Below, piece after piece: positions 1,704-64,000 of a stretch of 64,000 bases of DNA. The translations under genes and the position numbers were made by a program. Each line of letters begins with the position of its first letter. Position 1 is the stretch's first letter. Source of the DNA: an uncultured Mycoplasmatota bacterium (GTDB taxonomy: Bacteria > Bacillota_I > Bacilli_A > RF39 > UBA660); NCBI GenBank assembly GCA_900547775.1, contig URHW01000004.1, positions 4,806 through 68,805 of the forward strand, given 5' to 3'. The notes below the pieces were generated by a model. It did no database searches, was not told where the DNA came from, and saw only the letters and a list, made by a program, of their open reading frames with translations.

Positions 1704-3578
1704 CTATTTTACAACGTAAGGATCTTCTGAGGTGCCAGAGCCAGTTACTTCAACATTAGATGCAAGAGAAATTGATGGTCTCAAACCGATAACGGAACCA
1801 GCATAACTATAGAAAAGTTTTCCTGAACTGATGGCCCATAAGTAAGTATTAGAACCGAAATAACTAGGAGATAATGACCACCATACAGTAGTTCCTGTAT
1901 TCTCATATATATACGTAGAACGATTATAAGTATTATAAATAGAGCCAGAAAATGCTATTTCGTCTGCAGTTAATAAGCCTATTTTATAGGTTAGATTTCC
2001 ATTACCATTTGTTGTATCACTTACAGTAAATTTAGATAACTTCCCTCCATTATTATCGTCTAGACATTTTAGCGTTGGTATTTTAGTAGAAACTAATCTG
2101 ATACGCACGTCATAATTTGTAAGATCAGTTCCATATCCATGACCACTAGAAATACTTTTATCATTGCACCATATTGTATCTGCTAGTTTACTTTCATATT
2201 CAGTTAAATTATTTTTATACCAAGTTTCTAAATTTGTAAGGATTGTACTTTTATTTGTATTTGCATGCGTGCTTGCATAATCACTTGCACCAGTTGTTCC
2301 ATACATAAAACCAATATATGCGTTATCGTCATAACTTGAATTAAATGCAGTTTTATACGAATTTTCAGAATACCTTGCAAAAGCTGCTGTTTTACTATTA
2401 TTTGATGCAGAGCAAGGATTAGAAACATTAGATATATTATCATTATGGAGTACAAGTTTAATAGAACCATCACCAGTTATTCTTACTATTCTCCAACACT
2501 TATTTGCAAACTGTACGTAATTATTATTTATAGCACCTCTAAAATAATAACTAGTTCCATAATCATCTTCAGCGCTTGCTAAAATTGCCTCTGTTGTATT
2601 TTTATTGGAAGTTAATTTCTTATATACAAAACTATCTGATGTAGCACTTACTACATAATATACACTGTCTAAATTAGTTGTAGTCTGCATATCTCCTGCT
2701 GTACTTGAGCCTGTATCTGATAAATTCTGACTAGTCAAATATTTACCAACTAAACTTGAATATGAATTAGCATATGTATTATTTGTTACTGCTGTTCCGG
2801 TTAAATCAAACTTCGTACCATTTGCTGTCCACCCTGTACCATATGTTACATAATATGCTTGATATGCTGATGATACAGATGAAGTTTCACTTTCTGTGTC
2901 ATCCAAAGTATATGCACTAACTTCACTACCAGGCACTGTTAAAGGCTCTACTACTTTATTATCAGCAAGTATCGCTTCGTTAAGTGGCATTCCATCAGAT
3001 GCTTCACCAATAACTACTATCTTACCCTCCCATGATTTACCTAATCCTTGATCTAGTGTTACATTTTCATCCATCCAAAGTCTTAAATCAAAACTCTTCT
3101 CTTCATTAGCTTGTAACCCTGTATTAACAATTATATACCCTTTTCTATTATTATCTAAATCTGTTAACTTCTTACTACCTAGTACTATAGACTGTCCATC
3201 AGTAGTTCCTTTAGGTGATATATTAACCTTAATATAATTATCATCTAAATATTTTGTTCCTAAATTACCTCTATGTTCACTATCAATTGTAATATATAGT
3301 CTTATATAGCTACTACAATTATTTTTAAGTGTAAAAGTAAATGGCGTTCCTTTCAATCCTTCACTATCAACTACTGGATAAGCATTCTCTAAAACAATCT
3401 TTTCAGTGTTTTCAGTTAAACTAGTATCAAAACAAGTCCTTGATACAAGAGTATTATTATCACTTTGTTTTAAAAACAATTGAAAAAATGCATATGATAC
3501 ACCAATAATACATATCACAGTAACTAAAAGAGAAAAATAAATCCTAATCTTCTTTTTATCTTTAATAATTTCTTCCAT
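1704..3578 (-). CDS. Paralog 1 of a hypervariable-C-terminus surface protein family (membrane-anchored; DUF1566/C-type-lectin-like C-terminal domain inferred)
   Basis: N-terminal signal-anchor. The N-domain (TRTC..TLTE..PFTFTLKNNC..FDLRLW) is shared with 9959-11542 and 19816-21687. The conserved core FANKCWRIVRITGDGS..LHNDN and a C-terminal YWWSLSP..RPSISL cassette are present. Confidence 0.7.
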   Translation of the reverse strand: MEEIIKDKKKIRIYFSLLVTVICIIGVSYAFFQLFLKQSDNNTLVSRTCFDTSLTENTEKIVLENAYPVVDSEGLKGTPFTFTLKNNCSSYIRLYITIDSEHRGNLGTKYLDDNYIKVNISPKGTTDGQSIVLGSKKLTDLDNNRKGYIIVNTGLQANEEKSFDLRLWMDENVTLDQGLGKSWEGKIVVIGEASDGMPLNEAILADNKVVEPLTVPGSEVSAYTLDDTESETSSVSSAYQAYYVTYGTGWTANGTKFDLTGTAVTNNTYANSYSSLVGKYLTSQNLSDTGSSTAGDMQTTTNLDSVYYVVSATSDSFVYKKLTSNKNTTEAILASAEDDYGTSYYFRGAINNNYVQFANKCWRIVRITGDGSIKLVLHNDNISNVSNPCSASNNSKTAAFARYSENSYKTAFNSSYDDNAYIGFMYGTTGASDYASTHANTNKSTILTNLETWYKNNLTEYESKLADTIWCNDKSISSGHGYGTDLTNYDVRIRLVSTKIPTLKCLDDNNGGKLSKFTVSDTTNGNGNLTYKIGLLTADEIAFSGSIYNTYNRSTYIYENTGTTVWWSLSPSYFGSNTYLWAISSGKLFYSYAGSVIGLRPSISLASNVEVTGSGTSEDPYVVK

Positions 3579-3645
3579 CCTTTTACCCTACTTTCATAAA
3601 ATTATTATATCAAATTATTAATAATTAAAAAAGAAGAAATACAAT

Positions 3646-4260
3646 TTAATTCTTCTGTATTTCTTCAATTATTTTATAAACTTCCGTATAAGGATTAGTT
3701 TCAACCGTCTGTAGTATTCTTCCATTTTCTAATTGAAATTTTTCTAATCTTTTAGCATTAACAATTGCTTTATTTGTATTATTGCAAATCAAAGGATAAA
3801 TATCATAACTTTTATTATAACCAGCACAATGTTTTTTTAATTCTTCTATTACTTCATCATTACTGGAATATTGCGCCGTAGAATAACGATAATGCAATAA
3901 AAACCAAACCTCTACACAAGGTGCTGATACTATAGGAATAATATTATTTTCCTTTGCTAATCTTATTGCTTCACATATTTGTGAATTTTTTTCTGGCTTA
4001 ACATCCGTATCAAACATACAAAATGCTCTGTCATCACCAGTTAAGTCTAAAGATTCTTCTTTAACTTTTGCTATAGTATGCTCCACTAAACTAATTGGAT
4101 CAGTATCATTACCAGGAACTTTTCTAATCACATAATTATTATCTCTTCCATTATAATTTCCTAAGTAGATATCTTCTGTTTTATTTTTACCTTCATAAGA
4201 AACTAATATTGCTCTTTTTGATATTCTGTTTTTTCTATTTCTCTGCCTATCACTACTCAT
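3646..4260 (-). CDS. RloB-like (Toprim-like) protein, partner of AAA_21 ATPase
   Basis: 204 aa. The N-terminal R-rich segment is followed by ILVSYEGKNKTEDIYLG, resembling the RloB consensus ILIVCEGEKTE. It overlaps the upstream ATPase by 4 nt. Confidence 0.6.
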   Translation of the reverse strand: MSSDRQRNRKNRISKRAILVSYEGKNKTEDIYLGNYNGRDNNYVIRKVPGNDTDPISLVEHTIAKVKEESLDLTGDDRAFCMFDTDVKPEKNSQICEAIRLAKENNIIPIVSAPCVEVWFLLHYRYSTAQYSSNDEVIEELKKHCAGYNKSYDIYPLICNNTNKAIVNAKRLEKFQLENGRILQTVETNPYTEVYKIIEEIQKN

Positions 4261-5492
4261 AAATCAAAATTATTAGTTAAAAATGGAATTGCACCATACC
4301 TCCCTAACAAATATCCTTTCTCTACATTTTCAAGTTTTCTTACTGAGAAATCATCTAAAGGATATATTGCACTAGAACCATCATCCGGATTCTTTTCTGC
4401 AAACCAAATCTGATCTCTACGTAATATTTCTAAATTAAGTAAATTAGTATCATGTGTATTAAATATTAACTGAGCACCATTCTTATTAACTTCTGGATTA
4501 TTAAATATCTCAACCAAATACTTTACTATAAATGGATGTAAACTCTTATCAAATTCATCATAAATAAGAACCTTACCATTATCTAAAACATCTTTTAAAA
4601 CTGGTATAAAAGAAAATATAACCTGTGTTCCAAGTGATTCTTCATTAATATCAAATTCATACTTATGTCCATGAATCTCATGAACCGTACTTACTTTAAA
4701 TAAAGATGAATTTAAAGGAATAATAAACCTAAAAGTATCTGGTACTCTATTTAAAATATCTTCAGTCATCTTCTCTTCAGTAACTTTATAATCATCAATA
4801 TTAAAATCTGCTTTTTTTAAAAATCCAAGTGCAAAATCTCTTAACTTATTATCTTTATCTTTTGAATACATATTATAAGAATAATTATTTACTTGTTCAT
4901 AAGACATAATAACACCTAACTTCTCAGTTAAGAAATCAAATGCTGGTTTGGTCTTATCATAATTCCAGTTAGTTGCTGTAGCTACAAAAAATTTATTTGC
5001 TGAATTCTTACTCTTGATATCATTCAATATTCGCTCATCACTAGCATTAAAAGAATATTCATTAGTATTCTTTCTTTCAAATATCTTAGTAGGTCTACCA
5101 TTAGGATAATAATATAAGCTCTCTTCATAAACATATAAATTATCAGCACTAAAAGCATAAACATATCTTATACCATCGTATATAAATTTTATTTCAAACT
5201 CACTAGGTTTATCAGAGGTATCTTCACTTAACTTAAAAGGACTAATTGGCATTGCCATATTAGGAGTTCTGTAATTAGACCCTTTAATTATTGAACCAAC
5301 AATTGCGATTATTTTAAATAAATTAGTCTTACCAGAAGCATTAGCTCCATATAAAGCAGTAGTTCTTAAAAGCCTCTCTCCACCAACTTCCATAACATTA
5401 TTTAAAAGTTCCTTATCACTTGAAGCAACCATACTAAATGTATTCTTATCCTTAAAAGATAAAAAATTTGTAACACTAAACTCTATAAGCAT
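4257..5492 (-). CDS. AAA_21/ABC-type ATPase (OLD/PARIS-AriA-like), candidate defence ATPase
   Basis: Walker A GANASGKTNLF. The central region is long, and C-terminal Walker B/D-loop-like motifs (LIYDEFDKSLHP, FNTHD) are present. It is translationally coupled to the RloB-like gene. Confidence 0.6.
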   Translation of the reverse strand: MLIEFSVTNFLSFKDKNTFSMVASSDKELLNNVMEVGGERLLRTTALYGANASGKTNLFKIIAIVGSIIKGSNYRTPNMAMPISPFKLSEDTSDKPSEFEIKFIYDGIRYVYAFSADNLYVYEESLYYYPNGRPTKIFERKNTNEYSFNASDERILNDIKSKNSANKFFVATATNWNYDKTKPAFDFLTEKLGVIMSYEQVNNYSYNMYSKDKDNKLRDFALGFLKKADFNIDDYKVTEEKMTEDILNRVPDTFRFIIPLNSSLFKVSTVHEIHGHKYEFDINEESLGTQVIFSFIPVLKDVLDNGKVLIYDEFDKSLHPFIVKYLVEIFNNPEVNKNGAQLIFNTHDTNLLNLEILRRDQIWFAEKNPDDGSSAIYPLDDFSVRKLENVEKGYLLGRYGAIPFLTNNFDL

Positions 5493-7521: not shown

Positions 7522-9243
7522 CTACTTTACAATAAATGGATTACTACTAGTTCCATTTCCACCAATAATCTTAGCATTCTTAAGTTGTAATGTTGGTCTT
7601 ACTTTATTAGTATCAGTAACAACACTAGCAGTATCAGTACCACCACCATATGATTTATATGATCCACCAGTAGCAACTGCATAACTACTACTATTAACAT
7701 AATTATTATAAACATGAGCTTCCGGAGTACCATAGTTAAAGTTTGAAGTATCCATATTAAATCCAGTAATCTCAATTAACCAGAAATTCTTACCAGCATT
7801 ACTATTATTAGTTAAATAACTTCTATAACAATTATTACCATTACAATTAGCAACTTTACTATAATCATTCTTACTCATAAGAGCAACCTTAGTATTAAGT
7901 GATCCACCACCAAATACAGTACCAGAAATATATTGATTCTCTACATATCTAGGATTAACTGCACTATAGAAACTATTAACTACATTATCCATAGTATAAC
8001 TAAATGAACCATTCAAATTATGTCCACCTAATCCTTGATAATAATATCTTCCACCATTACAGCATCCACTATACTTACAAGCACCAACTTGTCCATAAAC
8101 TAAATCAGTTCTATTATTATAACTATAAGGATCATTAGCAATTATCTTAATACTATTACCTTTTCTATGATAAATTCTAAATACATAAGAATTATTATTA
8201 AACTTCAAATAATTACTTTCAACTTCACCTTTGTAATAACACTCATCACTCTTACCTGTTTCAGGTGTACAATCATTATTAATAAAATCAATCAAATTAT
8301 CACTAACAACATAATCTAAAGTAAATGGACTAGGAACAGAACCATCACTATTAGTCTTATTATAAGTAATTATTGCACTCTTACTACCAATTGGTTCAGT
8401 AACAAAACCTTTCATTGTAAAATCTGTAATATTATCTACAGGACTAGTAAATTCTTTCTTAGTACCATTCTTATAAGTAACAATTAATGTGACCTTAGTA
8501 TCCTTAGCCCCAAGAACTATCTTATTACCATTCTCATTTAAATAAGCCGTAAAACTATCAACATCAGTCTCACTAGCAGCAACATATACATTTCTAGTCT
8601 TACTAACACTCTTACCATTATAAGTATAAGTATAAACAACACTATAAGTACCAGCCTTAGTAACATCAACATTACAACTAGTAACCTTAATACTATCTCC
8701 CTTAACTAAAGGATAAGTCTTACTAGCATCATTTAAATCAGTTAATACTAACTTACCATACTTAGGATCACTACCATTTAAACCCTTAAACTCATTTTCT
8801 TCAGTACACCAATTACTACCACTAGCATCATAAGCTAAATAAATAGAATCAGCAACTAAATAAGTATTAGTTTCATCTGGTGGATTAAGTTCAAACTCTG
8901 TAGCACCAGTACCACCATTTAAAGTAACACGAACTATTTCATCATCTTTATACTTTTCGCTAGTTTCCTTATTAGTAATATCTTCACTAAGTAGTCCATT
9001 ACTCCTCAAATCACCAATAGTAATATCTACAAAATTATATCCTTCATATAGTTTCTCGATCTCACTCTTATTAGCACTAACATAAGCATCTGCTGCACTA
9101 AGTATCTGCTTAACTGTATCTTTATTATTCTCTTTAGGATCATTCTTACCAACCAAATTAACAATAAAAATACCAACAATAACTGCAATCAGTGCTATAA
9201 CCGCAATTATCTCTACTAATGTAAATCCTTTCTTATTCTTCAT
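7522..9243 (-). CDS. Prepilin-type N-terminal cleavage/methylation domain protein (large type IV pilin-like)
   Basis: N-terminus MKNKKGFTLVEIIAVIALIAVIV is a class III signal (G-F-T-L-V-E plus a hydrophobic helix). The C-terminal region is a 540-aa beta-rich segment. Confidence 0.75.
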   Translation of the reverse strand: MKNKKGFTLVEIIAVIALIAVIVGIFIVNLVGKNDPKENNKDTVKQILSAADAYVSANKSEIEKLYEGYNFVDITIGDLRSNGLLSEDITNKETSEKYKDDEIVRVTLNGGTGATEFELNPPDETNTYLVADSIYLAYDASGSNWCTEENEFKGLNGSDPKYGKLVLTDLNDASKTYPLVKGDSIKVTSCNVDVTKAGTYSVVYTYTYNGKSVSKTRNVYVAASETDVDSFTAYLNENGNKIVLGAKDTKVTLIVTYKNGTKKEFTSPVDNITDFTMKGFVTEPIGSKSAIITYNKTNSDGSVPSPFTLDYVVSDNLIDFINNDCTPETGKSDECYYKGEVESNYLKFNNNSYVFRIYHRKGNSIKIIANDPYSYNNRTDLVYGQVGACKYSGCCNGGRYYYQGLGGHNLNGSFSYTMDNVVNSFYSAVNPRYVENQYISGTVFGGGSLNTKVALMSKNDYSKVANCNGNNCYRSYLTNNSNAGKNFWLIEITGFNMDTSNFNYGTPEAHVYNNYVNSSSYAVATGGSYKSYGGGTDTASVVTDTNKVRPTLQLKNAKIIGGNGTSSNPFIVK

Positions 9244-9818: not shown

Positions 9819-9958
9819 AATCACCACCAATGTTGAAAACACGTACCAAAAACCTCTACTATTATTATTTATCTCTCTCGCCTGTCCGTTTGTCACTCGA
9901 AGGGTTTCTCAAAGGCTTTTGCGACTGACGATTTCGACCTTATAATTCTTTGCCCTGT

Positions 9959-11542
9959 TTACATACTTATTATGTACGGGGAACTACTGGTTCCTTCTCC
10001 GGTTACGTTGGTAGAGGGCTTAAGAGAAATCGAAGGGCGGACACCGGTGGTGCCATACACGTCGCCACTGCCGAAGCCGCCAAGGCTGCCGACAACGGCC
10101 CAAACGCGAGCGCTGTCACCACTGAAGCTGTAAGGAGACAAGGACCACCAATAATCACTAGTAGCATTTTCTTGTAAATATGTTGTAGAATTAACTAGAT
10201 TAAAAGCGTATCCAGCATATGCTAACTCATCTGCTGTTATTAAACCTATTTTTGAATTTATTTTACTTAGTTCTCCATTACATTTTAAACTAGGGCCCGT
10301 ACCTCCAGCACTTTCACTTGCGCTTACTAATCTTTGCGTAGCACCATAATATGTTTTATTTTTGCCATATCCAAAACCATTTGGTGCCATTCTCCATGGA
10401 TCAAATGTTGTATCTGTTACATTGGTTTTGTCATTGCACCATACAGTATCAGCTATTTTATCAGCATAATCTTTTAAATTATTTGTATACCAAGTTTCTA
10501 AATTAGTTAGTATTGTACTATTATTTGTATTTGCATGTGTAGCTTCATATGTACTAGAACCTGATGTTCCATACTTAAATCCTACATAAGCATTGTCATT
10601 CCAGTTTTCATTAAATTTACTTGTATATGTTGTACTAGAGTATCTTGCAAATGCTGCACTAGCACTATTATTAGCTGAATCACAAGGATTAGCTACTTTT
10701 GTAGTATTATCATTATGTAAGATAAGTTTTACTGAACCATCTCCACTAATTCTTACTATTCTCCAGCACTTATTAGCAAACTGTACATAGTTATTTGTTA
10801 CAGCTCCTCTAAAGTAGTATGATGTACCATTATTATCTTCTGCAGATGCAAGTAATGCTTCATCAGCAGTAGATACTGCTGCTCCTGGTTTAGTTATTGG
10901 AGCCTTAACTTCATTATTAGCTAATATAGTCTCTGCAAAAGTAGGTTCATCCGCAGCAACTATACTAACAACTATCTTACCTTTCCAAGTTTTATTTAAC
11001 CCTTGTTCATTAGTTGTTTCTGAATCTAACCAAAGTCTTAAATCAAAAGATTTTGCTTCTTTATTTTTAAGTCCTGTGGTTTTAAGTACATATCCTTGCG
11101 TATTAGTATCTACTTCCCCTAAAGAAAGTGTACTCAAGATTACTGAACTGCCATCATTAGTCCCTTTAGTTGATAAATTAGATTTAACATAATTATCTTT
11201 TAAATAAGCAGTGTTAGTACTAGTTCTATATTCACTAACTAGTGCTATAGTCACTTTTACATAACTATCACAATTATTAGTTAATGTAAAAGTAAATGGT
11301 GATTGTTTAAGTCCATCTTCATCACTAATTGGAAAAGCATCAGATAATACAATTTCACTTGTCTCTTCTGTTAAAGTGGTATTTAAACAAGTTCTTGTAC
11401 CAATAACATTACTATTAGTTTGAGTTTTAGTAATTCTATAATAAGCATAAGTTACTCCGATAAGTACTAATACAGTTACAAGTAACCCATATAAAATTGT
11501 TCTTTTCTTCTTTTCATTCTCTATAATATCCATTAGCCTCAC
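9959..11542 (-). CDS. Paralog 2 of the hypervariable surface protein family; putative DGR target
   Basis: Same N-domain and core as paralogs 1 and 3, without the roughly 100-aa central insertion. The C-terminal cassette at about 10030-10135 is GC-rich and NNC-codon-rich. Confidence 0.75.
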   Translation of the reverse strand: MRLMDIIENEKKKRTILYGLLVTVLVLIGVTYAYYRITKTQTNSNVIGTRTCLNTTLTEETSEIVLSDAFPISDEDGLKQSPFTFTLTNNCDSYVKVTIALVSEYRTSTNTAYLKDNYVKSNLSTKGTNDGSSVILSTLSLGEVDTNTQGYVLKTTGLKNKEAKSFDLRLWLDSETTNEQGLNKTWKGKIVVSIVAADEPTFAETILANNEVKAPITKPGAAVSTADEALLASAEDNNGTSYYFRGAVTNNYVQFANKCWRIVRISGDGSVKLILHNDNTTKVANPCDSANNSASAAFARYSSTTYTSKFNENWNDNAYVGFKYGTSGSSTYEATHANTNNSTILTNLETWYTNNLKDYADKIADTVWCNDKTNVTDTTFDPWRMAPNGFGYGKNKTYYGATQRLVSASESAGGTGPSLKCNGELSKINSKIGLITADELAYAGYAFNLVNSTTYLQENATSDYWWSLSPYSFSGDSARVWAVVGSLGGFGSGDVYGTTGVRPSISLKPSTNVTGEGTSSSPYIISM

Positions 11543-11780
11543 CTACTATAAACAATTATAAATGATAAGTATCTTTTAATCAAGGCTCTTTAATTTAATT
11601 TAATGAAAATTATAAAAAAAAGATAACTTCATGATATCAATAGTTATCTTACTTAAATCTTGCTTAAATCCTACTTAAATTAATTTTTATAATACATCTA
11701 ATTTCTTTATAATAATGAGTATTAAAACAATATTATAACTTTACCAAAAACCTACAAAATTATTTGACATTTACATTTAA

Positions 11781-11958
11781 AAGCAGCAAAAAACAGCAAA
11801 AAAGCAGCAAAAAAGCAGCAAAAAAACAGCAAAAAAACAGCAAAAAGCAGCAAAAAAGAAGCAAAAAACAGCAAAAAACAGCAAAAAGTAGCAAAAAAAC
11901 AGCAAAAAGCAGCAAAAAAACAGCAAAAAACAGCAAAAAAACAGCAAAAGTAGCAAAA
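11781..11958. repeat. Tandem A-tract repeat (about 16 units of cagcaaaaaa(c/g), 10-12 bp period)
   Basis: Direct reading. Phased A5-7 tracts lie between the stop of 11962-13632 and the promoter region of paralog 2. Confidence 0.9.
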
Positions 11959-11961: not shown

Positions 11962-13632
11962 CTACTTCAATTTCCAACAAGAATGACCTGATTTATTATC
12001 ATGATAAATTTTTCCTTCTTTCTTCAATAAATCTAATAGATACCTAACTCGGCTTAGTTTAGTGCCTTCATCTAATGAATTAGGTAACTTATCTTTAAGT
12101 AAAGAAATAATTTCTTTTCTACTTGCTGAACCATATTCTTTTATATATTTAATTATTAGTTCCATATAAAACTCATTTTCTAATCCAGAATTATAAACAT
12201 ACTCTTCCTTCTTTTCTGTTAAGCTAGCAAGACTTGATGAAATATAAATGTTTGGATATCTTCCTTCAATTAAATGTTCTTTTTTTAGATAATCACTTTG
12301 CTCTTTACTTATCGTATATCTCTTTTGTAATCTATCAAGTAATATTATTGCACTAATATCTAAGTTAGTTCTTTCAAATAACAATCTACTATAATTTTCA
12401 TCAATTATTTTTCCATATAATGTTACAATAACTCGGTTAGAATTACTTAAATCATAATCAGGCATTGGAAAATATTTTTTCTTTTGAATATCATAAACTC
12501 GTTTAATTCCACTACCAACTGTATCTATCATATTCAAATTAACCATCGCACTTATTAAAAAAGGATTCCTATAATATGGAGAAGAATATCCATCTTTTAA
12601 AACGTTCTCAATTGTTTCCGGAATAAAACTGCCTTCATTTATGATCATCAATCTATCTGAATATTCAATTATATTAATGTTTCCATGAAGTCTGTAATCT
12701 TGATGAGCAATACAATTATTAATTAACTCACGAAGAATATAATTATCATACTTATCTACTTCATAAGGAAATAAAGTTGCATCACTAATCATGTATCTAT
12801 ACTTTAAATTTCTAATCTTAGATTTTATTTTATCAATATTAATAATAAAAGGTATTCCAAAATGTTCATAATCAATCACATTAAAATCATCATAAAGTTT
12901 CCACGTCATTCGTGGAATATATCCTTCCATCAAATAATCATAATCACTATTTCCTAAAAGCAACATACAAGCCATAGTTATCTTATTATTAATTGTTAAT
13001 CTTGCTTTATTTAAAAATTCAATATCAGTCAAATTATCAACTTCATCTATTAATTTATCATCTTTATGTTTAACTTTAAATTGTTCTCTAGCAACTTTAA
13101 TTGCACCTTTATCAAGATTATCTATTGTAGTTTCTTCAAGAACTTGTCTTGACCAATCATAATTTATAGTAGTTTTAATTTGTTCAATCTTATTTAGTGA
13201 TAAAGGAGATAATGATTCGCCTATTCTTCCATAAGGAAACCCTTTCCAATTAATTGGAGTTCCAGAGGCGGCTGGTACTTGAAACATTATCACTCTTTTA
13301 CCATTAACAACAATTGTATAAATTTCAATAAAACTTATATTATCCGTAGTATTATCAGAAATTTGTTTTTTCACCTTATTAAAATCATTATCTATGCAAT
13401 AATTAGTACTAGTTAACTCATGTGTTTTATCATCAACACCAAATATTATCCAAGAATAAAGTTTGTTTTTTAAATTAGCTTCATTAGCTAAAGCTGAGAA
13501 ATATTTTCCTAAGGTATCAACATCAAAATTATTCTTAGCTCTTTTAAACTCAACACATTCATTTTCAGAAACTTTTAATAGATTACTTAATATTACAAGT
13601 AGCTCCTCAGTTGTCTTATACAAACTTATCAC
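11962..13632 (-). CDS. AlbA_2 (Schlafen-like) plus HATPase_c_4-type putative transcriptional regulator
   Basis: 556 aa. The N-terminal divergent AAA-4/AlbA_2-like region (ECVEFKRAKNNFD) is followed by an ATPase-like region and a C-terminal wHTH-like tail. Confidence 0.5.
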   Translation of the reverse strand: MISLYKTTEELLVILSNLLKVSENECVEFKRAKNNFDVDTLGKYFSALANEANLKNKLYSWIIFGVDDKTHELTSTNYCIDNDFNKVKKQISDNTTDNISFIEIYTIVVNGKRVIMFQVPAASGTPINWKGFPYGRIGESLSPLSLNKIEQIKTTINYDWSRQVLEETTIDNLDKGAIKVAREQFKVKHKDDKLIDEVDNLTDIEFLNKARLTINNKITMACMLLLGNSDYDYLMEGYIPRMTWKLYDDFNVIDYEHFGIPFIINIDKIKSKIRNLKYRYMISDATLFPYEVDKYDNYILRELINNCIAHQDYRLHGNINIIEYSDRLMIINEGSFIPETIENVLKDGYSSPYYRNPFLISAMVNLNMIDTVGSGIKRVYDIQKKKYFPMPDYDLSNSNRVIVTLYGKIIDENYSRLLFERTNLDISAIILLDRLQKRYTISKEQSDYLKKEHLIEGRYPNIYISSSLASLTEKKEEYVYNSGLENEFYMELIIKYIKEYGSASRKEIISLLKDKLPNSLDEGTKLSRVRYLLDLLKKEGKIYHDNKSGHSCWKLK

Positions 13633-13737: not shown

Positions 13738-16700
13738 TTAACTCTGAGTTCCATCATTTGTTTCTACTGTTATATCATAATCTGTATCATAATAGTAATT
13801 ACTAAATAAAACATTTGAATTATTAATAACTGTTCTTATACCTAAGTCTCCTCTACCATATATAGCGTTTCTTTCAATAGATTTAACACTATCAGTTAAA
13901 GTTATTGTCTTAAGTATAATATTATTCATAAGTGCATAACTACTAATATTTTCTGCATCTATTACATATTCTAACTTCTCATAATAACTAGGAACACTTA
14001 TTAAAGTCGTACCATCCTTATTAAACAATACTCCATCTCTGCTACTATAATTATTATTATCAGCACTAACTATAAATTTATTTATATTTAGGTTTATTCT
14101 TGATTCTATACTAGTAACAGAGCTTGGCACACTTAAACTCATCTTCTTATCATCAGCACTTACTAATCCATTTAATGAGTCATATATAATTCTCGTTGTT
14201 CCTTCTCTAATTTGTACATCTCCTTCAAGTTTATCAGGAACTAAAATAAGTGTATCCCCATTATATAATATATTATTTTCTACTTCTAAAGTACTTGCTT
14301 TTATTTCTTTAAAGTTAACTCCCCTAAATGGTGCTATACCTACATAAGCATTTCCTATATCAGCACTCTTACCCTTAAAGTTATAAAACGCATAATCTCC
14401 AATAGTTTGAACACTTCTAGGAATAACAATATCACCTAAACTACTATCTATAAAAGCATAATCTCTAATATATTCTAAGCCTTCATTAAATGTTATATTA
14501 CTTAAACTAGTATTTGTACTAAAAGCATACTGCTCAATAGTTCTAACCGAACTTCCTATAGTAACACTAGTAAGACCTAAATTATTAGCAAATGCTCTCT
14601 TACCAATCTTTTCACTATTAACATTAAGCATCTTTAAACTAGTACTTTCAAAGGCCGATGTTCCAATAGATTTAACACTTGATGGAATATTAATATTAGT
14701 AATACCAGTTCCATAAAATGCATTATTACCAATACTACTAACATTATTCCCAATAACAATATTATTAATTTGGCTCGCATAATTATCCCAAGGAGCGCTT
14801 ATAAAATCTTGCATATCTCCGGTTCCATACACGCTTAATGTATAACCATTACTTCCATCTATCACTTTGTTACTATATAAAAATGCGATTACATCTTCTT
14901 TATTATTCTTACCGATCTTATAATAATTCACATATTCATGCTCTGCACTTACTATCTCACTAGTAGTACGCTTTTGATTAACTAAGCCATATATATCTCT
15001 AACTGCACCATCACTTAAAGTTAATGTAAATAGTCCATAATAATTATTTGCTTTTACCACTACTTCAAATCGGTATCCATTAGTAATATCTTTAACCTTA
15101 GTAACACTATCAACTAAAACACCATTACTAGCACTAATCATACCCTTATCAAGAGATGCACTAGCAAGTCCTCCACCAATATCCGTACATTCCAAATACG
15201 CCTTACCAGTTCCATAAATATCACTTGGTACATCAGTAAACATACAACTAGGTGCTGGATTATCTGCAATAGCATAATAAGTAGTTCCTTTATTTCTACT
15301 ATTAATTGTAACTGTACTTCCAATATTTTTAATGTTTCCACCACTAGGACTTGTACTCCATCCCTTTTTAGTTATTCCATCTGGAACACTAAAGTCAGGT
15401 AATGTAACTGTGCATCCTGAACCTAACCTACTTTCTGTACAAGTAAGTGTTGTCTCACCAAGAGTTCCATAAGTTCCCCCATTTAAATTAATTTGAAATA
15501 CATTAGTAACATATATAGGTATTCTAAGTTCTCCACAATCTGCACCTTTAATAACTAAATATGTAGTTCCAGTTCTGTATGATCTTATCTTTATCTTATC
15601 AGTAAACACCTTATTAATATTATCAGGTTCATATGAGAAATTACTTTGTGATACCACATTAACACTTGCTGTCCAACTATTACTAACACTATAACTAAGT
15701 TTGCCAGTAGCAGCATAACTAATTGTAATCTCTGCACTTTCCCTATTAACACCTAAAGTAATTGAATTTAGATTACTTTTTAAAGAATAAACATTATAAT
15801 CAAGTTCAGCAAGTCTATTACCATTATTTTCTCTTAAGTAAATAACTGCTTTACCCGTATTAGTTCTTCCTAACTTATAAGGAAGACTACTATCATACTG
15901 CGTACTAGTAACATTATGTCTTACTAATGACATCTGTCCATATCTTCCACCATTATTGGCACAATTATTACTTAAACTAATCGCTGGCTGACTAGGATTA
16001 TTACCTAAATCTACTAAATAATAATCAGTCATACTATCAAACACTATATTATTCTTCGTACTATCACAAGTCTTACCACTACTATCTAATACTCCCAAAT
16101 TAATCCCATGAATTGTAATGGTATTATTACTAAGATCAGAACCAACCTCTTTACACACTTTAGTAACCGTATTATTATTCTCTCTAAAATATAAACTTGT
16201 CTTATAAATAACTGGTATAAATATATCTAATGAGCCATCTCTTACACTCTTAACATTAACTTTAAAATCTTCTACATTATCATAAATATCTTCACCATTA
16301 GTGGTCTCTAAAATAACTGTATCATTTTCTATATGACAATTTAAATAATCAGTATTTTCTTCATATCCACCATAAGTACTTTTCTTATAAACAGTGCAAG
16401 TAAAATCATTACTAGAGCTTCCGTTTATCTTAGACTTAAACTGTGTCTTATCATTATTTTGTCTTCTTCCCCCATTAAAATATAAATATTCTGGTATATC
16501 TGTATTATCTAATTTAATATTTGAAACATTAACCTCAAAACTAGTTTCACCACAAATTGATCCTTTTATTCTAATGGTAACAGTTCCAATACTATTTCCT
16601 TTTATATAAAAGTAATTCTGATTATTTAAAGTTATTGTACTTCCAAATGAACTATTATTTGCTGATATACTAGCAGCACTACTATCAACTGATACAGTAA

Positions 16701-17769
16701 TTCTTCCTGTACCACCAGCCTTAAGTTCTACTCTCTTAGCAGCCTCACCTACAATAACATTCGTAATATGCGTTACTACATCTAAATCATAAACTTCTCT
16801 AGTTATAACCTTACTAATACCTGCATGATCTTCAGTTATCGTAAAACTTTTCTCACCTGTACTAGTACCACTATTCATATATAGAACGTCTCCCTTTATA
16901 GTAGCATTCAAATCATCACTAATCCCACTAAGAGAAAACTCGCCATAATTCTTCCCCGTAATCCTAAAAAGTTCATTAGTAAGTGTTTTCATACACATCT
17001 TAGGTGTATATCCATCTATATCATAATTAACAACATACACCCCTAAATTCATATGTCGATATAACTTCTTTTCTGCTCCTTCATCATCTCTGTATGTACC
17101 AGTTACTTGTACTTGATAATTTCCATCACTTCCAGTACCATTATCATTTAAAGTAATAACTAAATCATCACCAACAACTTTACAACTAAATGGACCTGTC
17201 GCTTCACATGTAATACTTTTAAAAGTTCCTTTAGTATAAATCTTAGTTTTAAATTCCTCATGAAGTCCCCAATAAAAATCTTTCTTTGTAGTTCCTAAAT
17301 TAAGTGAATAATTACCATCAACTGCTGGACATGAATAATTCTTATTTTTTATATCATAAAAAGTAGCACTTATCGTTACTGTAGATGGATCATAACATAA
17401 AAGAACATTACCACTGAGTCTTCCACCAGTAACTGGATTGCCAACATAACTAGCATCATCTTTAGTAGTATCATACTCTAAATAACCTAGACCTACTAAA
17501 TCATCAACACTTATTATGCACTCATCATACGCATCATCATTAATAACTCCAGATTCTAACCCATTAGTACACTTCTGATAAGTATTAATATTATCTTCAC
17601 CATACTTAGAAGCACTAGTTTCAATAGTACTAATCTTAGAATTTAAAATACTCTCTTTTGTATTTTTTGAAATATTAGTAACCGCTGGTATCAAAATAAC
17701 CATAATAATTGCAAGTATTGTAATAACTGCAAGAAGTTCCACCATTGTAAAACCCTTATGGTTCTTCAT
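13738..17769 (-). CDS. Giant prepilin-type N-terminal domain protein with Ig-like middle region and C-terminal BspA-type leucine-rich repeats
   Basis: N-terminus MKNHKGFTMVELLAVITILAIIMV is a class III signal. The C-terminal 350 aa carry repeated IPSSV.SIG..AF LRR_5-like units. Confidence 0.75.
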   Translation of the reverse strand: MKNHKGFTMVELLAVITILAIIMVILIPAVTNISKNTKESILNSKISTIETSASKYGEDNINTYQKCTNGLESGVINDDAYDECIISVDDLVGLGYLEYDTTKDDASYVGNPVTGGRLSGNVLLCYDPSTVTISATFYDIKNKNYSCPAVDGNYSLNLGTTKKDFYWGLHEEFKTKIYTKGTFKSITCEATGPFSCKVVGDDLVITLNDNGTGSDGNYQVQVTGTYRDDEGAEKKLYRHMNLGVYVVNYDIDGYTPKMCMKTLTNELFRITGKNYGEFSLSGISDDLNATIKGDVLYMNSGTSTGEKSFTITEDHAGISKVITREVYDLDVVTHITNVIVGEAAKRVELKAGGTGRITVSVDSSAASISANNSSFGSTITLNNQNYFYIKGNSIGTVTIRIKGSICGETSFEVNVSNIKLDNTDIPEYLYFNGGRRQNNDKTQFKSKINGSSSNDFTCTVYKKSTYGGYEENTDYLNCHIENDTVILETTNGEDIYDNVEDFKVNVKSVRDGSLDIFIPVIYKTSLYFRENNNTVTKVCKEVGSDLSNNTITIHGINLGVLDSSGKTCDSTKNNIVFDSMTDYYLVDLGNNPSQPAISLSNNCANNGGRYGQMSLVRHNVTSTQYDSSLPYKLGRTNTGKAVIYLRENNGNRLAELDYNVYSLKSNLNSITLGVNRESAEITISYAATGKLSYSVSNSWTASVNVVSQSNFSYEPDNINKVFTDKIKIRSYRTGTTYLVIKGADCGELRIPIYVTNVFQINLNGGTYGTLGETTLTCTESRLGSGCTVTLPDFSVPDGITKKGWSTSPSGGNIKNIGSTVTINSRNKGTTYYAIADNPAPSCMFTDVPSDIYGTGKAYLECTDIGGGLASASLDKGMISASNGVLVDSVTKVKDITNGYRFEVVVKANNYYGLFTLTLSDGAVRDIYGLVNQKRTTSEIVSAEHEYVNYYKIGKNNKEDVIAFLYSNKVIDGSNGYTLSVYGTGDMQDFISAPWDNYASQINNIVIGNNVSSIGNNAFYGTGITNINIPSSVKSIGTSAFESTSLKMLNVNSEKIGKRAFANNLGLTSVTIGSSVRTIEQYAFSTNTSLSNITFNEGLEYIRDYAFIDSSLGDIVIPRSVQTIGDYAFYNFKGKSADIGNAYVGIAPFRGVNFKEIKASTLEVENNILYNGDTLILVPDKLEGDVQIREGTTRIIYDSLNGLVSADDKKMSLSVPSSVTSIESRINLNINKFIVSADNNNYSSRDGVLFNKDGTTLISVPSYYEKLEYVIDAENISSYALMNNIILKTITLTDSVKSIERNAIYGRGDLGIRTVINNSNVLFSNYYYDTDYDITVETNDGTQS

Positions 17770-17779
17770 AAAATCACCT

Positions 17780-18316
17780 CTATTCTGCTATCTTAAAATA
17801 AATATTAGATGTAAAATCATTTCCATTAGAAGCAAGCATTTTAACCCTTAACTCCCTAAGACTAGTATTTTCAAACTCCTTATAATTAACAAAATCATTC
17901 TCATCTATTATTGCTCCATCAGGAACTTTACGCACAAAATTACGTGTCCTCTCATCACTAGTTAAATTATTATTAACATATTCATATTTAATATATCTTG
18001 CATCATCAGTTAATGATAACTTCTTTACAATAAGTTCATTTAAATTACCTTCCCTAAAAGCATTAAAAGTAATTGTAACACTTTTCTTCCCATCTAAACT
18101 CACACTCTTGACTCCATATCTATTAATATCCGTACTAATCGTATCAATTAAAATGGTATCTAATACTTCAAAATCAACTTCTAACTTACTCTTCTTATAT
18201 AACCCATTAACTGTAATTAATAATCTTGTAATAAAAATAAGAATAATTGACACAAGCACAATAGATACAATAATCTCAACAAGAGTCATCCCCTTCTTAT
18301 TCATCACTATCACCAA
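17780..18316 (-). CDS. Pseudopilin (prepilin-type N-terminal domain)
   Basis: N-terminus KKGMTLVEIIVSIVLVSIILIF. It overlaps the upstream gene by 20 nt. Confidence 0.7.
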   Translation of the reverse strand: MVIVMNKKGMTLVEIIVSIVLVSIILIFITRLLITVNGLYKKSKLEVDFEVLDTILIDTISTDINRYGVKSVSLDGKKSVTITFNAFREGNLNELIVKKLSLTDDARYIKYEYVNNNLTSDERTRNFVRKVPDGAIIDENDFVNYKEFENTSLRELRVKMLASNGNDFTSNIYFKIAE

Positions 18317-18806: not shown

Positions 18807-18814
18807 AATACCTC

Positions 18815-19815: not shown

Positions 19816-21687
19816 TTAATTTATAATATAAGGATTATCACTCGTACCATTACCAGTTACGCTGGTCGAAGATATAAGAGAAATGGCCGGGCGAACACCA
19901 GTGTCGCCGTCAATGTTGCCGTCGCGCAAGTCACCCGAGCGCACGCCCCGATCGAGAGTGATGATGCTATCGAAGTAGCTAGGCGACAAGGACCACCACC
20001 AATTCGTCCCAGTATTTTCTTGTAAATATGTAGAACGATTATAATAACCAGATACCGACCCAGCAAATGCTATTTCATCTGCAGTTAATAATCCTATTTT
20101 ATAAGTTAAGTTACCATTACCATTCTTTGTATCATCAACAGTAAATTTAGATAATTTTCCACCATTATTATCATTTGGACATTTTAATGTTGGCTGTTTA
20201 GTGGAATCCAATCTATTATATGCAGCATAATTTGTATACTCTGTCCCATAACCTAATCCTCCACTTACTGTACTTTTATCATTACACCAAATTGTATCAG
20301 CTAGTTTATCTTCATATGGTGCTAAATTTTTTGTATACCATATCTCCAAATTTTTTAGTATTGTACTTTTATTTGTATTTGCATGTGTACTTGCATAATC
20401 ACTTGCTCCAGCAGTACCATACATAAATCCTACATAAGCATTATCATTATGGTTTGTATTAAATGCACTTTTATATGTTTCACCAGAGTATCTTGCAAAT
20501 GCTGCATTAGTACTATTATTTGCTGATGAACAAGGATTAGCTACTTTTGTAGTATTATCATTATGAAGAACAAGTTTTACTGAACCATCGCCTGTTATTC
20601 TTACTATTCTCCAGCATTTATTAGCAAATTGTACATAATTATTTTTTACTGCCCCTCTAAAGTAGTAAGATGTTCCATAATCATCTTCTGTACTAGCAAG
20701 TAATGCTTCTGTTGTATTTTTATTTGATGTTATTTGTTTGTACGTAAAACTGCTTGATGTAGCGCTTACTACATAATATATACTGCTTAAATTAGTGGTT
20801 GTTGTCATTGATCCTGCAGTACTTGAACCAGAACTTGATAAAGAACTATATGGCAAATATTTTCCAACTAAGCTTGAATATGAATTAGCATATGTATCAC
20901 TTGTTACTGCAGTACCAGTTAAATTAAAGTTTGTCCCATTTGCTTCGTATCCAGTACCATAAGTTATATAATATGCTTGAGATGTTGATAATACACTTGT
21001 TGACTGACTTTCAACATCATCTTTAGTATGAGCATTTACTTCTTTTCCTGGTGTTGTAAGTGGTGATTTTATCTCGTTATTTGCAAGTATTGCATCTTTC
21101 AATGTAACCTCTTCATTAGCAGCTACTCCAACAACGACTATCTTACCTTCCCAGTTCTTATTAAGTCCATCTGCAATAGATGTTTCACCATCCATCCATA
21201 CTCTTAAATCGTAACTTTTCTCTTCATTTGCTTTAAGTCCAGTAGTTACTAAAATATAACCTTTATTTGTGCCTTCCAATTCAGTTAAAGTCTGACTTCC
21301 AAGAAGCACGGAAGAGCCATCAGTCGTTCCTTTGCTAGATAAATTAACTTTTAAAAAACTATCCTTTAAGTATGCTACATCAGTACTTGTTCTATACTTA
21401 CTATCAATCGTAATATACACTTTAACATAACTATCACAATTATTTTTTAAAGTGAATGTAAATGGTGTTTGTTTAAGACCATCTTCATCACTTATCGGAA
21501 AAGCATCACTTAAAGTTATTTTAGATGTTTCTTCAGTAAGCGTTGCATCTAAACAAGTTCTAGTTCCAATAACATTACTATTAGTTTGCGTTAATTTCAA
21601 TCTAAACCAAGCATAACTTACACCCATAAAAACAACTAAAGTTATAAGTAATCCATAATAAATTTTTATTTTCTTTTTATCTTCCAT
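19816..21687 (-). CDS. Paralog 3 of the hypervariable surface protein family; putative DGR target
   Basis: Full-length architecture like paralog 1. The C-terminal cassette at about 19890-19985 is GC-rich and NNC-rich. Confidence 0.75.
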   Translation of the reverse strand: MEDKKKIKIYYGLLITLVVFMGVSYAWFRLKLTQTNSNVIGTRTCLDATLTEETSKITLSDAFPISDEDGLKQTPFTFTLKNNCDSYVKVYITIDSKYRTSTDVAYLKDSFLKVNLSSKGTTDGSSVLLGSQTLTELEGTNKGYILVTTGLKANEEKSYDLRVWMDGETSIADGLNKNWEGKIVVVGVAANEEVTLKDAILANNEIKSPLTTPGKEVNAHTKDDVESQSTSVLSTSQAYYITYGTGYEANGTNFNLTGTAVTSDTYANSYSSLVGKYLPYSSLSSSGSSTAGSMTTTTNLSSIYYVVSATSSSFTYKQITSNKNTTEALLASTEDDYGTSYYFRGAVKNNYVQFANKCWRIVRITGDGSVKLVLHNDNTTKVANPCSSANNSTNAAFARYSGETYKSAFNTNHNDNAYVGFMYGTAGASDYASTHANTNKSTILKNLEIWYTKNLAPYEDKLADTIWCNDKSTVSGGLGYGTEYTNYAAYNRLDSTKQPTLKCPNDNNGGKLSKFTVDDTKNGNGNLTYKIGLLTADEIAFAGSVSGYYNRSTYLQENTGTNWWWSLSPSYFDSIITLDRGVRSGDLRDGNIDGDTGVRPAISLISSTSVTGNGTSDNPYIIN

Positions 21688-47755: not shown

Positions 47756-49045
47756 CTAATTTACAACATAAGGTTTTTCCCTCGTACCATTTCCGGTTAC
47801 GTTGGTCGTCGATTTAAGAGAAATCGAAGGACGAAGCCCGTAGGCGTTGCTCACGTTGAAGCCGACACCTTGTCCGCCAATGCCCCAAACGCTAGCGTTG
47901 CCGCCACGGAAGCCGTCAGGAGACAAAGACCACCAATAAGTGGCTGTAGCATTTTCTTGTAAATATGTTGTAGATACATTTTTATTATAAGCATATCCTG
48001 CAAACGCTAGTTCATCTGCTGTTATTAATCCTACTTTTGATGTTATTTTACTTAGTTCTCCATTACATTTTAAACTAGGGCCCGTGCCTCCAGCACTACC
48101 ACTAGTACCTACTAATCTCTTGGTAGCGCCATAATATGTTTTATTTGTACCATATCCTAATCCAGTTGCATTTCCACCATATGACCATGGATTATAACTT
48201 GTATCTGTTACATTTGTTTTATCATTACACCATATACTATTATCTATTACACTTTCATATGCTGTTAGATTATTATTATACCATGTTTCTAAATTAGTTA
48301 GTATTGTACTCTTATTAGTGTTTGCATGTGTAGCTTCATATGTACTAGAGCCTGGTGTTCCATACTTAAATCCTACATAAGCATTATCATAATAGTTTGT
48401 ATTAAATGCACTTTTATATGTTTCACCAGAGTATCTTGCAAATGCTGCACTTGCACTATTATTTGCAGCATCACAAGGATTAGCTGCTCCAGTTGGATTA
48501 TCATTATGTAAGATAAGTTTTACTGAACCATCTCCACCAATTCTAACTATTCTCCAGCACTTATTAGCAAATTCTACATAGTTATTTGTTACTGCACCTC
48601 TAAAGTAATAAGATGTTCCATAATCATCTTCTGCAGATGCAAGTAATGCTTCATCAGCAGTAGATACTGCTGCTCCTGGTGTGGTTATTGGAGTCTTTAC
48701 TTCATTATTTGCAAGTATTTTATCTTTAAATTTCAGATTAAATGAAACATTGCACCTCACATTACCAGCACTTATATCATTAAAAGACACTACCCATTTT
48801 GTGCCATTCCATGTAGCCTTTGCTCCTGCGTCTTGTTTTATTCCATTTCTAGTACACTCTACAGTTGCCATATACTTATTTGTAGTTGGAAATGTAGTAC
48901 TAGCTTTTCCATCAATAACAGCTGCTATGATAGGTCCATTATTATCTTCTAGTAAATCTTTTTTATCACTTTTACCATATATAAACATTCCAGAAATAAT
49001 TATCGTGCATACAATAATTAAACTAATTATTTTCTTCATATTCAT
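47756..49045 (-). CDS. Paralog 4 of the hypervariable surface protein family (distinct short N-domain); putative DGR target
   Basis: Shares the core (FANKCWRIVRIGGDGS) and C-terminal cassette. The N-terminal 110 aa are different. The cassette at about 47830-47925 is GC-rich and NNC-rich. Confidence 0.75.
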   Translation of the reverse strand: MNMKKIISLIIVCTIIISGMFIYGKSDKKDLLEDNNGPIIAAVIDGKASTTFPTTNKYMATVECTRNGIKQDAGAKATWNGTKWVVSFNDISAGNVRCNVSFNLKFKDKILANNEVKTPITTPGAAVSTADEALLASAEDDYGTSYYFRGAVTNNYVEFANKCWRIVRIGGDGSVKLILHNDNPTGAANPCDAANNSASAAFARYSGETYKSAFNTNYYDNAYVGFKYGTPGSSTYEATHANTNKSTILTNLETWYNNNLTAYESVIDNSIWCNDKTNVTDTSYNPWSYGGNATGLGYGTNKTYYGATKRLVGTSGSAGGTGPSLKCNGELSKITSKVGLITADELAFAGYAYNKNVSTTYLQENATATYWWSLSPDGFRGGNASVWGIGGQGVGFNVSNAYGLRPSISLKSTTNVTGNGTREKPYVVN

Positions 49046-62958: not shown

Positions 62959-62994
62959 AAAAATCTCCCTTCCTAAAATAAAAAAGCCCATAAT

Positions 62995-63235
62995 CTAAGG
63001 ACGAGTCAAACCCGTGTTACCACCTTAGTTTATGAACTTATTTCATACACTCATTATCTATAACGTAGATACCGTACTATACTTATCCTATAGTAACATC
63101 CGAAGTGATCCTTAATACTTCCAGTATACTTACTTTCACCACAACGTAAGCTCTCTAAATACCTTCCATATCAACGTCTTCATCAACTGCTTATGCCATA
63201 AATTATATGCCAATAACACATACTTGTCAAGCACA
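62995..63235 (-). promoter_or_regulatory. T-box riboswitch leader upstream of ileS
   Basis: Minus-strand AAGGTGGTAACACGGG core at 63013-63030, followed by a hairpin/T-run. Confidence 0.6.
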
Positions 63236-63239
63236 AACT

Positions 63240-64000
63240 TTATTGTACTACATATGGTTCTTCTGAAGTACCAGAACCGATTACTGTAATTGATGGTGAC
63301 AAACTTATTGCTGGGCGTACTCCGATTTCGTCACTCACACTATCATTAAGCAACATGCCGTCAATAACAAGCCAAACGCATGGCATATTTCCCAAATCAG
63401 AATCAGGAGACAACAGCCACCAATAATCATCAGTAGCATTTTCTTGTAAATAAGAACCAGCTCCAATTAAATTATATGCGTACCCAGCAAATGCTACCTC
63501 ATCTGCGGACAATAAACCTATCTTTGTTGTTACTTTACTTAAAGTACCATTACATTTCAAACTCGGACCAGTACCACCAGTACTACCACCACCATTAACT
63601 AATCGTTTAGTGGGATTATAATAAGTTACATTTTCACCATAACCCAAACCAGTTGGATTCCAACCCCATGGATCATATGTCAAATCTGTCACAATACTTT
63701 TATCATTACACCATACCGTGTCAGCAATTTTACTTTCATAAGTTAATAAATTATTATTATACCATTTTTCTAAACTGGTAAGTATCGTACTTTTATTTAT
63801 GTTTTCATGAGTTTCAGCGTAACTAGTAGAGTATGGCGTTCCATACATAAAGCCTATGCCAGCATTATCATCAGAGATTTCATTAAATTGACTTACATAT
63901 GAAGTTCCAGAATATCTTGCAAACGCTGAAGTTGTACTATTACTAGAAGAAGAGCACGGGTTTGAAACATTTGAAGTATTATCATTATGAAGCACTAATT
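63240..64000 (-). CDS. Paralog 5 (C-terminal part; gene continues beyond window) of the hypervariable surface protein family
   Basis: Shares the LHNDN..NPC..AAFARYS core. The C-terminal cassette is degenerate (WLLSP, MPCVWLVIDGMLLND). Confidence 0.65.
   Translation of the reverse strand, partial: LVLHNDNTSNVSNPCSSSSNSTTSAFARYSGTSYVSQFNEISDDNAGIGFMYGTPYSTSYAETHENINKSTILTSLEKWYNNNLLTYESKIADTVWCNDKSIVTDLTYDPWGWNPTGLGYGENVTYYNPTKRLVNGGGSTGGTGPSLKCNGTLSKVTTKIGLLSADEVAFAGYAYNLIGAGSYLQENATDDYWWLLSPDSDLGNMPCVWLVIDGMLLNDSVSDEIGVRPAISLSPSITVIGSGTSEEPYVVQ

Follow-up and report, generated by a model that had tools for sequence, protein, structure and literature searches.

Here we analysed a 64,000-nucleotide stretch of contig URHW01000004.1 from an uncultured Mycoplasmatota bacterium (the window, by which we mean the whole of that stretch), which encodes five members of a family of putative surface proteins, three of them probably diversified by diversity-generating retroelements (DGRs) lying elsewhere in the genome. 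The window is a segment of a bacterial chromosome with 30% GC and a pronounced strand bias, and it carries housekeeping genes such as tyrS, leuS, ileS (with a T-box upstream), rpsD, tmk and tdk. A first-pass annotation made from the letters of the window had reported five paralogues, and open reading frames (ORFs) were found at all the positions it gave, every one of them on the minus strand: c1 (1704..3578, 624 aa), c2 (9959..11542, 524-527 aa, with the ATG at 11533 as the likelier start), c3 (19816..21687, 623 aa, with an additional middle domain), c4 (47756..49045, 429 aa, with a different and shorter N-terminal part) and c5 (63240..64000, the C-terminal 252 aa of a family member, in a partial ORF that runs to the window edge). 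The full-length orthologue of c5 has 624 aa in two conspecific contigs (L032 and L033), and the last 759 nt of c5 are 100% identical in three other strains.

A C-terminal core of about 290 aa can be aligned in all five copies with 51-66% identity to c1, far above chance, and the motifs PFTFTLKNNC and FANKCWRIVRI..LHNDN that the annotation had quoted are found in the translations. An N-terminal anchor (...GVSYAxF...) and a beta-sandwich domain are common to c1, c2 and c3, and an extra middle domain of about 110 aa is present in c1 and c3; c2 thus consists of the N-terminal membrane anchor, the beta-sandwich domain and a C-terminal domain that models as an expanded C-type-lectin-like fold. The family is large, with 5383 representatives at 50% identity (E <= 1e-3), and the exact c3 protein (P0001) was recovered from several samples. 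In some relatives the lectin-like domain is repeated many times in tandem, one of them (P0324, 4905 aa) having 24 matched stretches.

The part of these proteins that had been described as a cassette tail is real: it is a hypervariable stretch of 26-29 codons flanked by WWSLSP and G[VL]RP, which cannot be aligned between paralogues and measures about 115 bases in c2, c3 and c4. The variable region (VR) of c2 (10020..10150, minus strand) comprises an adenine-free framework TGGTGGTCCTTGTCTCCT, 32 mostly NNC codons and a 3' stretch GGTGTCCGCCCTTCGATTTCTCTT resembling an initiation of mutagenic homing (IMH) sequence, while that of c3 (19875..19998, minus strand) has 30 codons after the framework and c4 has a VR-like stretch with the NNC signature at 47816..47935 on the same strand. 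The framework directly 5' of the variable codons, TGGTGGTCCTTGTCNCCT, contains zero adenines. These stretches depart strongly in composition from the genes that contain them: GC content is 64% in the c2 VR against 31% in the rest of the gene, 59% against 31% in c3 and 63% against 32% in c4, and C occupies codon position 3 (C3) in 66%, 63% and 65% of the codons, respectively, against 5% elsewhere in each gene. In the whole 64 kb the only 80-nt windows reaching 55% GC or more are the three VRs. The equivalent stretch of c1 (1764-1883) is AT-rich and shows a faint excess of C3 (27% against 4%, or 7 of 26 codons; binomial p = 5e-5), as does that of c5 (63300-63422; 19% against 7%), which is without the VR signature.

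The variability of this patch extends to the orthologues of c3, among which (n = 103) we counted 56 different hypervariable stretches, which conform to the pattern xxFxGxxAxVWxVxSGxLxxxxVxxxxG[VL]RP and vary at the positions that correspond to AAC in the template repeat (TR) described below. Because of this number of distinct stretches, and because sequence entropy is maximal in the VR, the lineage must have been diversified many times.

The composition of the template could be anticipated. In conspecific loci whose flanks are 98% identical to the window, a second c2 allele has a VR of equal length that differs almost exclusively at codon positions 1 and 2, and a TR made of AAC and AAT codons was therefore predicted before any TR had been found. 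We built a search pattern from the window c2 VR in which codon positions 1 and 2 could hold either their own base or A, some framework codons were fixed and third positions were free. This pattern matched eight metagenome contigs, one of which is the VR itself and seven of which, from the human gut, bear a TR reading AAC AAC TTC AAT GGT GAC AAC GCT AAC GTT TGG AAC GTT AAC and continuing GGC AGC AAT GGC AAC TTC GAC AAC AAC AAC GTG AAC AAC ACT AAC GGC GTC CG. The same adenine-free framework as in the VR stands 5' of the TR in all seven, and this AAC-rich type of TR is designated TGGTGGTCNTTGTCNCCTAACAAC. At the 3' end, the VR (...GGCGTCCGTCCTTCGATTTCTCTTAAG) and the TR (...GGCGTCCGTCCTTATTTTCTCTTAAAT) remain homologous beyond the last variable codon with few differences, and no convincing hairpin was seen immediately 3' of the VR.

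Comparison of the window VRs with these TRs, all of which come from related contigs rather than from this genome, showed that in c2 and c3 the differences fall almost only at adenines. The window c2 VR differs from the TR of contig L010 (BLAST aligning L010:7139-7268 to window 10150-10020) at 23 of 34 A sites and at 4 of 79 non-A sites (p = 5e-12), and the conspecific c2 allele, found in L004 and L007 with the synteny of the window copy, differs from the same TR at 17/34 A and 1/79 non-A sites (p = 5.5e-10). In the VRs that lie in cis to a TR (L008, L010, L023 and L026), about half of the A sites are changed and none of the 78-84 non-A sites. The window c3 VR, compared with the c3-type TR of L025, which belongs to a different species (L025:2013-2137 aligned by BLAST to window 19998-19875), differs at 22/34 A and 6/77 non-A sites (p = 9e-10). 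The c2-type and c3-type VRs need different TRs, since they have 32 and 30 codons. The best TR for c4 leaves 25/35 A and 20/78 non-A differences (p = 5.5e-6), and c4, when aligned with c2, has a gap of 3 codons; over the first 8 codons its VR is identical to the L026 cis VR, which suggests, judging from these codons, a common ancestry of the two followed by divergence. For c1 the bias towards A sites is non-significant (24/34 A and 48/79 non-A; p = 0.22), and for c5 the best TR gives 20/33 A and 33/78 non-A sites (p = 0.06). We conclude that c5 is not a current DGR target and that neither is c1, which may be a decayed former one. The idea of a diversifier acting from outside the window thus holds for c2 and c3 by their fit to TRs and for c4 by its signature, and fails for c1 and c5.

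No reverse transcriptase, Avd or TR of a DGR was detected in the window itself, in agreement with what had been noted from the letters. No ORF of 150 aa or more in the window matched RVT_1 in Pfam or NCBIfam; tblastn of the window with two sets of DGR reverse transcriptase (RT), Avd and MutS-like (MSL) proteins gave a best E of 0.2; blastn of the 3' 300 nt of each copy against the window returned matches to the other copies exclusively; and a scan of the window that accepted the same base or A revealed no template-like sixth copy, its best non-self scores falling on an unrelated A-rich tandem repeat at 11779-11949.

The cassettes were found in relatives. In L010 the genes ffh, a MazG-like gene and serS are followed by a 519-aa family member (the cis target), a spacer of about 450 nt, the TR and then, downstream, a 120-aa MutS_I-like gene, a 117-aa Avd-like gene and a 356-aa RT, with profile matches to MutS_I (1e-6), bAvd (3e-3) and RVT_1 (6e-12); L011 extends the region with a Mbeg1-like gene and polC. 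The gene set of L022, L023 and L025 is that of L010. Across these four contigs the RT lies 0.9-1.1 kb downstream of the TR and matches RVT_1 at 6e-12 to 1e-14, MutS_I matches reach 1e-6 to 1e-7 in three cassettes, above the Pfam cut-off, and the gene of 115-118 aa gives weak bAvd matches (E = 0.002-0.04) below the cut-off. The RT contains the motifs IGNMTSQ and YMDD, and [I/L]GxxxSQ is a mark of DGR RTs. Either serS and polC or spoIVA border the cassettes. A cluster of 613 members at 90% identity includes the c2-type RT, and the cassette is therefore common in this group of gut bacteria.

When the framework pattern was scanned over one genome per species, four metagenome-assembled genomes (MAGs) matched, and two of them show how targets and cassettes are arranged. 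CAKOOK01 carries both a c2-type cassette (L023) and a c3-type cassette (L025), each with target, TR, MSL, Avd and RT, the two RTs being 59% identical, together with at least 3 further VR-bearing copies on other contigs. CAKOJR01 carries a c3-type cassette (L022) and, on a different contig (L024), a remote VR that differs from the genome's own TR at 20/33 A and 2/78 non-A sites. Because of these two layouts, dispersed paralogues with remote cassettes can be taken as the norm in the lineage. The related MAGs are labelled as uncultured Bacilli or Clostridia bacterium from the human gut, and one has spoIVA at a neighbouring locus.

The spacer between target and TR is structured and about 280-450 nt long. 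In seven cassettes (L010:6685-7138; L023, L026, L031, L025, L027 and L022) it contains blocks conserved across cassette types whose RTs are 57-66% identical, one of which is a long hairpin with arms that differ yet remain complementary (GGCAAGCGCG/CGCGCTTG, GCGGCAACTG/CAGTTGCCGC and GGCGAGCCTGCG/CGCAGGCTCGCC) around a near-invariant core, GGATTyTCC..TTGGAG. Rfam, run on the window and two cassettes, matched no family to the cassette spacer, which may be a structured 5' part of the DGR RNA. About 90 nt after the c2 stop (9868..9958, minus strand) are homologous to the start of this spacer, as seen in the BLAST alignment of L010:5711-6774 to window 10932-9868, and they carry a degraded copy of the hairpin, GTCCCGAGAAACCCTTCGAGGGAC, from the block conserved across cassette types. 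A further contig, L031 (ENA ERZ27271080; 300-440), holds in the place of a TR, ahead of the MSL, Avd and RT genes, a sequence that keeps AAC/AAY codons at its 3' end alone and is VR-like in its 5' two-thirds (CGC GTC TTC AGT GGT GGC GAT GCT CTC GTT TGG TTC ...), so that this template looks, from its codons, overwritten or decayed.

Taken together, these results lead us to regard c2, c3 and c4 as probable remote targets of DGR cassettes elsewhere in the genome. An AAC/AAT-rich TR would be transcribed and copied by the DGR RT with misincorporation opposite adenines, and the cDNA would replace the homologous target stretch of about 115 nt, turning AAC codons into NNC codons as in standard mutagenic retrohoming. 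Each cassette would comprise a cis target, a structured spacer, a TR, a MutS-like gene, Avd and an RT, and with the cassettes outside the window its copies would therefore be remote targets, in which the VR (in c4 by signature) would encode the last strands and loops of the lectin-like domain. The cassettes would be of two or more types, the c2-type and the c3-type having separate TRs and RTs, and c1 and c5 would be paralogues that are not, or no longer, diversified. The first-pass annotation, whose inference proves largely right, had implied a trans-acting diversifier and pointed to single remote DGRs with several dispersed targets in other phyla. One DGR is insufficient here: VRs of the c2-type and of the c3-type are of unequal length and have their own cassettes in relatives, with RTs 57-59% identical, and c4 fits no TR sampled.

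Several observations weigh against these copies being served by cassettes of their own genome today. No cassette was seen in this very genome, nor within 6-10 kb past the right window edge, and the contigs at the left edge reach only 2-4 kb. The species of the window is absent from the per-species genome matches, the best loci having at most about 85% nucleotide identity; the exact IleRS of the window was matched solely on a 3-kb Logan contig, and because the RT-bearing contigs are mostly short, the RT homologues are not tied to this strain. The four non-A mismatches of the window c2 VR are all third-position C/T changes, and the six of c3 include V10D and W11R at otherwise conserved framework residues. 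The hairpin that follows c2 is degraded, in a flank that is missing altogether from c3 and c4, and c4 matches none of the TRs sampled (c2-type, c3-type, L027, L030 and L031). Moreover, several independent samples share the VR alleles of the window: P0001-P0003, proteins from three samples that differ elsewhere, have the same c3 hypervariable stretch, and the c2 VR recurs without any change in L002, L003 and L006 and with a single-nucleotide difference in L014. The alleles of the window (c3w and c2w) and the alternative ones (c3b and c2b) occur in all combinations (c3w/c2w, c3w/c2b, c3b/c2w and c3b/c2b), and because the same alleles recur in all four we conclude that they persist and are reshuffled by recombination with no visible mutation. 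No present-day diversification of the VR between strains was observed in this comparison of assembled sequences, which is compatible with activity at a low rate; current activity is unproven, since identical VR alleles recur across samples.

These observations would also be expected if the VRs of c2, c3 and c4 were fossils, written by ancestral DGRs or imported by recombination from a strain possessing the cassette, and now frozen and slowly decaying, a reading that we find rather unlikely and nevertheless deserving of weight. The recurrence of the same alleles in at least 4-5 independent samples and in every combination speaks for it, as do the non-A mismatches of c2 and c3 with the framework changes in c3, the loss or decay of the 3' hairpin, and the 3-codon deletion of c4 with no fitting TR. 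The weak NNC excess of c1 (7/26 against a 4% background) is consistent with a decayed VR, and L031 provides an example of a TR that itself decays. Long neglect is nevertheless difficult to reconcile with an NNC composition that is still extreme (59-64% GC in a genome of 30% GC), and the 613-member RT cluster indicates that the cassette is common in the group; in addition, the conspecific c2 allele has just 1/79 non-A mismatches to the TR, and a species-specific TR with extra adenines could account for 5 of the 6 non-A differences of c3. Targets served by cassettes elsewhere in the genome remain our preferred reading, under which homing at these copies would still be going on.

A last point of this kind is that the divergence between alleles spans the whole lectin module of about 0.8 kb and reaches beyond the VR. 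Measured in 90-nt windows, the L004 c2 allele and the L010 cis target share up to 96% identity over the 3' half and the 3' flank, and the N-terminal halves are just about 60% identical. Because allele divergence covers the whole module, recombination must contribute too. One might go further and suppose that there is no DGR at all, and that we are dealing with an ordinary family of paralogous adhesins whose loops are varied by diversifying selection and gene conversion, as the divergence over the entire C-terminal module, the mosaic identity between c2 alleles and cis target and a window without an RT would allow. Such an explanation, however, would leave unaccounted for a C3 of 63-66% in the VR codons against 5% elsewhere, and it is contradicted by the adenine-specific fit (p from 1e-9 to 1e-12) to TRs found independently beside RT genes, so that we give it hardly any credence.

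If DGRs do act on these genes, the structure of the encoded domain gives a sense of what they would change. In an AlphaFold2 model of full-length c3, for which the alignment was shallow, the predicted local distance difference test score (pLDDT) of the C-terminal domain stayed under 50; the c2 domain, modelled on its own with homologues of greater diversity, reached a pLDDT of 86 and a predicted template modelling score (pTM) of 0.87. The fold of this c2-domain model matched the T. ramosa IgA peptidase (9qa6, 13.1), whose N-terminal domain has been described as a C-type-lectin-like core (PMC12237041), a Bacteroides fimbrial protein (4eps, 6.8), the Legionella Lcl C-terminal domain (DUF1566; 6.3), the DGR variable protein TvpA (5.6) and many C-type lectins and FGE-like proteins (4-5). 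In the model, the C-terminal domain adopts an expanded C-type-lectin-like fold whose last strands and loops contain the VR, and this is the fold that the annotation had proposed to check by structure prediction.

That annotation could put no name to the family, and here we differ from it, as the family appears to be a divergent branch of Pfam DUF6273 (PF19789). The profile is matched by 55 of 108 aligned relatives (E <= 0.01; best 8e-7), precomputed PF19789 matches exist on several homologues, and a Foldseek search against viral models returned phage DUF6273 proteins with E down to 2e-6. Among the window copies c4 alone matches this profile (E = 0.012; 15.9 bits, below the cut-off of 23.5); c4 also weakly matches DUF5979 in Pfam. 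A sequence-profile search of the PDB gave no meaningful match. The modelled architecture, and what is known of DGR targets, suggest a surface protein made of an anchor, a beta-sandwich and a lectin-like head with a variable face, which would bind variable ligands at the cell surface.

As to the N-terminal part, its low-confidence model gave weak Foldseek matches to TasA-like archaeal pilins (7ueg) and CanA, with E of about 4e-3 to 2e-2. No NCBIfam or Pfam match to a TasA/camelysin-like protein with a SipW-type signal peptide was obtained, and the ...GVSYAxF... motif as a SipW/TasA-like sign is a lead only.

Genes with prepilin-type leaders lie at window 13738-19735 and 7522-9243, adjoining c2 and c3. 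The leaders are those of orf169 (G|FVLVE) and orf178 (G|MTLVE), that of orf306 being non-canonical, and the same regions encode a 1343-aa modular pilin with BspA-type leucine-rich repeats and a 573-aa pilin with an Ig-like domain; a gene with an SLT domain lies 7 nt upstream of c3. We considered a type IV pilus-associated adhesin and rejected it as unsupported: the N-termini of the family are without G|FxxxE and without an N_methyl match, a terminator-like hairpin with a T8 run after c3 separates that gene from the prepilin genes, and family members in related MAGs do not adjoin prepilin genes.

Other features of the neighbourhood are the following. Defence-like genes adjoin two family members, with a RloB-like gene and AAA_21 ATPase pair upstream of c1 (window 3646-5492) and a Schlafen AlbA_2/HATPase_c_4 protein upstream of c2 (11962-13632). 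Between the latter gene and c2, the A-rich repeat at 11779-11949 consists of 16-17 tandem copies of a 10-11-nt unit (AAAAACAGCA on the plus strand, GCTGTTTTTT on the gene strand), with T-tracts phased at about one helical turn and copy numbers of 17, 9, about 18-20 (interrupted) and about 9-10 in conspecific strains; upstream of the promoter, it may represent a stretch of bent DNA or else an element prone to slippage. A T-box leader (62994-63195, minus strand; 97.7 bits) lies between c5 and ileS, and the same scan identified a single tRNA gene (38159-38231, minus strand). Just past the right window edge, upstream of the c5 orthologue in L032/L033, otherwise syntenic strains differ, one of the pair having RhuM/Fic genes and the other HD_4, GAPDH and PRK.

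A more elaborate picture would combine at least two chromosomal MSL-type cassettes with private sets of lectins, exchange of whole modules, a pilus association of c2 and c3 and hairpins serving remote targeting. Taken as a whole, we consider this combination doubtful. If it were true, the cis target and the remote paralogues would swap whole lectin modules along with some 90 nt of the 3' flank, giving a two-tier diversification, and the conserved, covarying hairpins between target and TR would make up a structured 5' domain, new for the DGR RNA and required for remote targeting.

Our analysis reveals no new mechanism. It extends DGR control to a large family of surface proteins with lectin heads, in uncultured bacteria that are prevalent in the human gut, and the presence of several copies per genome and at least two cassette types is relevant to the variation of surface recognition in gut commensals. 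It also has a practical side. Large DGR surveys seek VRs beside the RT and acknowledge that remote targets are missed (Roux et al. 2021, PMC8144416); in a genome of 30% GC such targets could be recognised by composition alone, as spikes of GC and NNC codons, and the absent template could be recovered through a pattern of VR base or A.

Remote DGR targets, MSL accessory genes, DUF6273 targets and DGR-diversified adhesins of gut Bacteroides are all already documented. The DGR of Treponema denticola diversifies TvpA and several remote targets and has an HRDC accessory gene, in contrast to the MutS-like gene and Avd found here; the targets described in this study are moreover DUF6273-like, with a membrane anchor and beta-sandwich domains, and relatives have at least two cassette types within one genome. 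The combination of MSL and avd is a known one (PMC5758913), and the MSL-containing DGRs (architecture D of Wu et al. 2018; the Legionella DGR has one MSL) likewise carry a MutS_I-like gene and avd beside TR and RT. They differ in target family and in host, which here belongs to the low-GC uncultured gut Bacilli/Clostridia, and the likeness is one of gene content. In phages, DUF6273 has been reported as a lectin-like domain that DGRs target, the VR lying at the C-terminal end (PMC10743442, PMC11792537), and these phage targets (Faecalibacterium prophages; tentaclins) share with our proteins the domain family and a lectin-like structure prediction; the genes studied here, however, are chromosomal and dispersed among housekeeping genes, their cassettes have no phage-gene flanks and the window copies themselves remain below the Pfam threshold. 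The Bacteroides DGRs that act on type V pilus adhesins (bioRxiv 10.1101/2024.11.15.621889) differ in phylum and in appendage. What is particular to the system described here is its host lineage, an expanded form of the lectin domain, the coexistence of two or more cassette types with their own sets of paralogues and the signs that whole lectin modules are exchanged.

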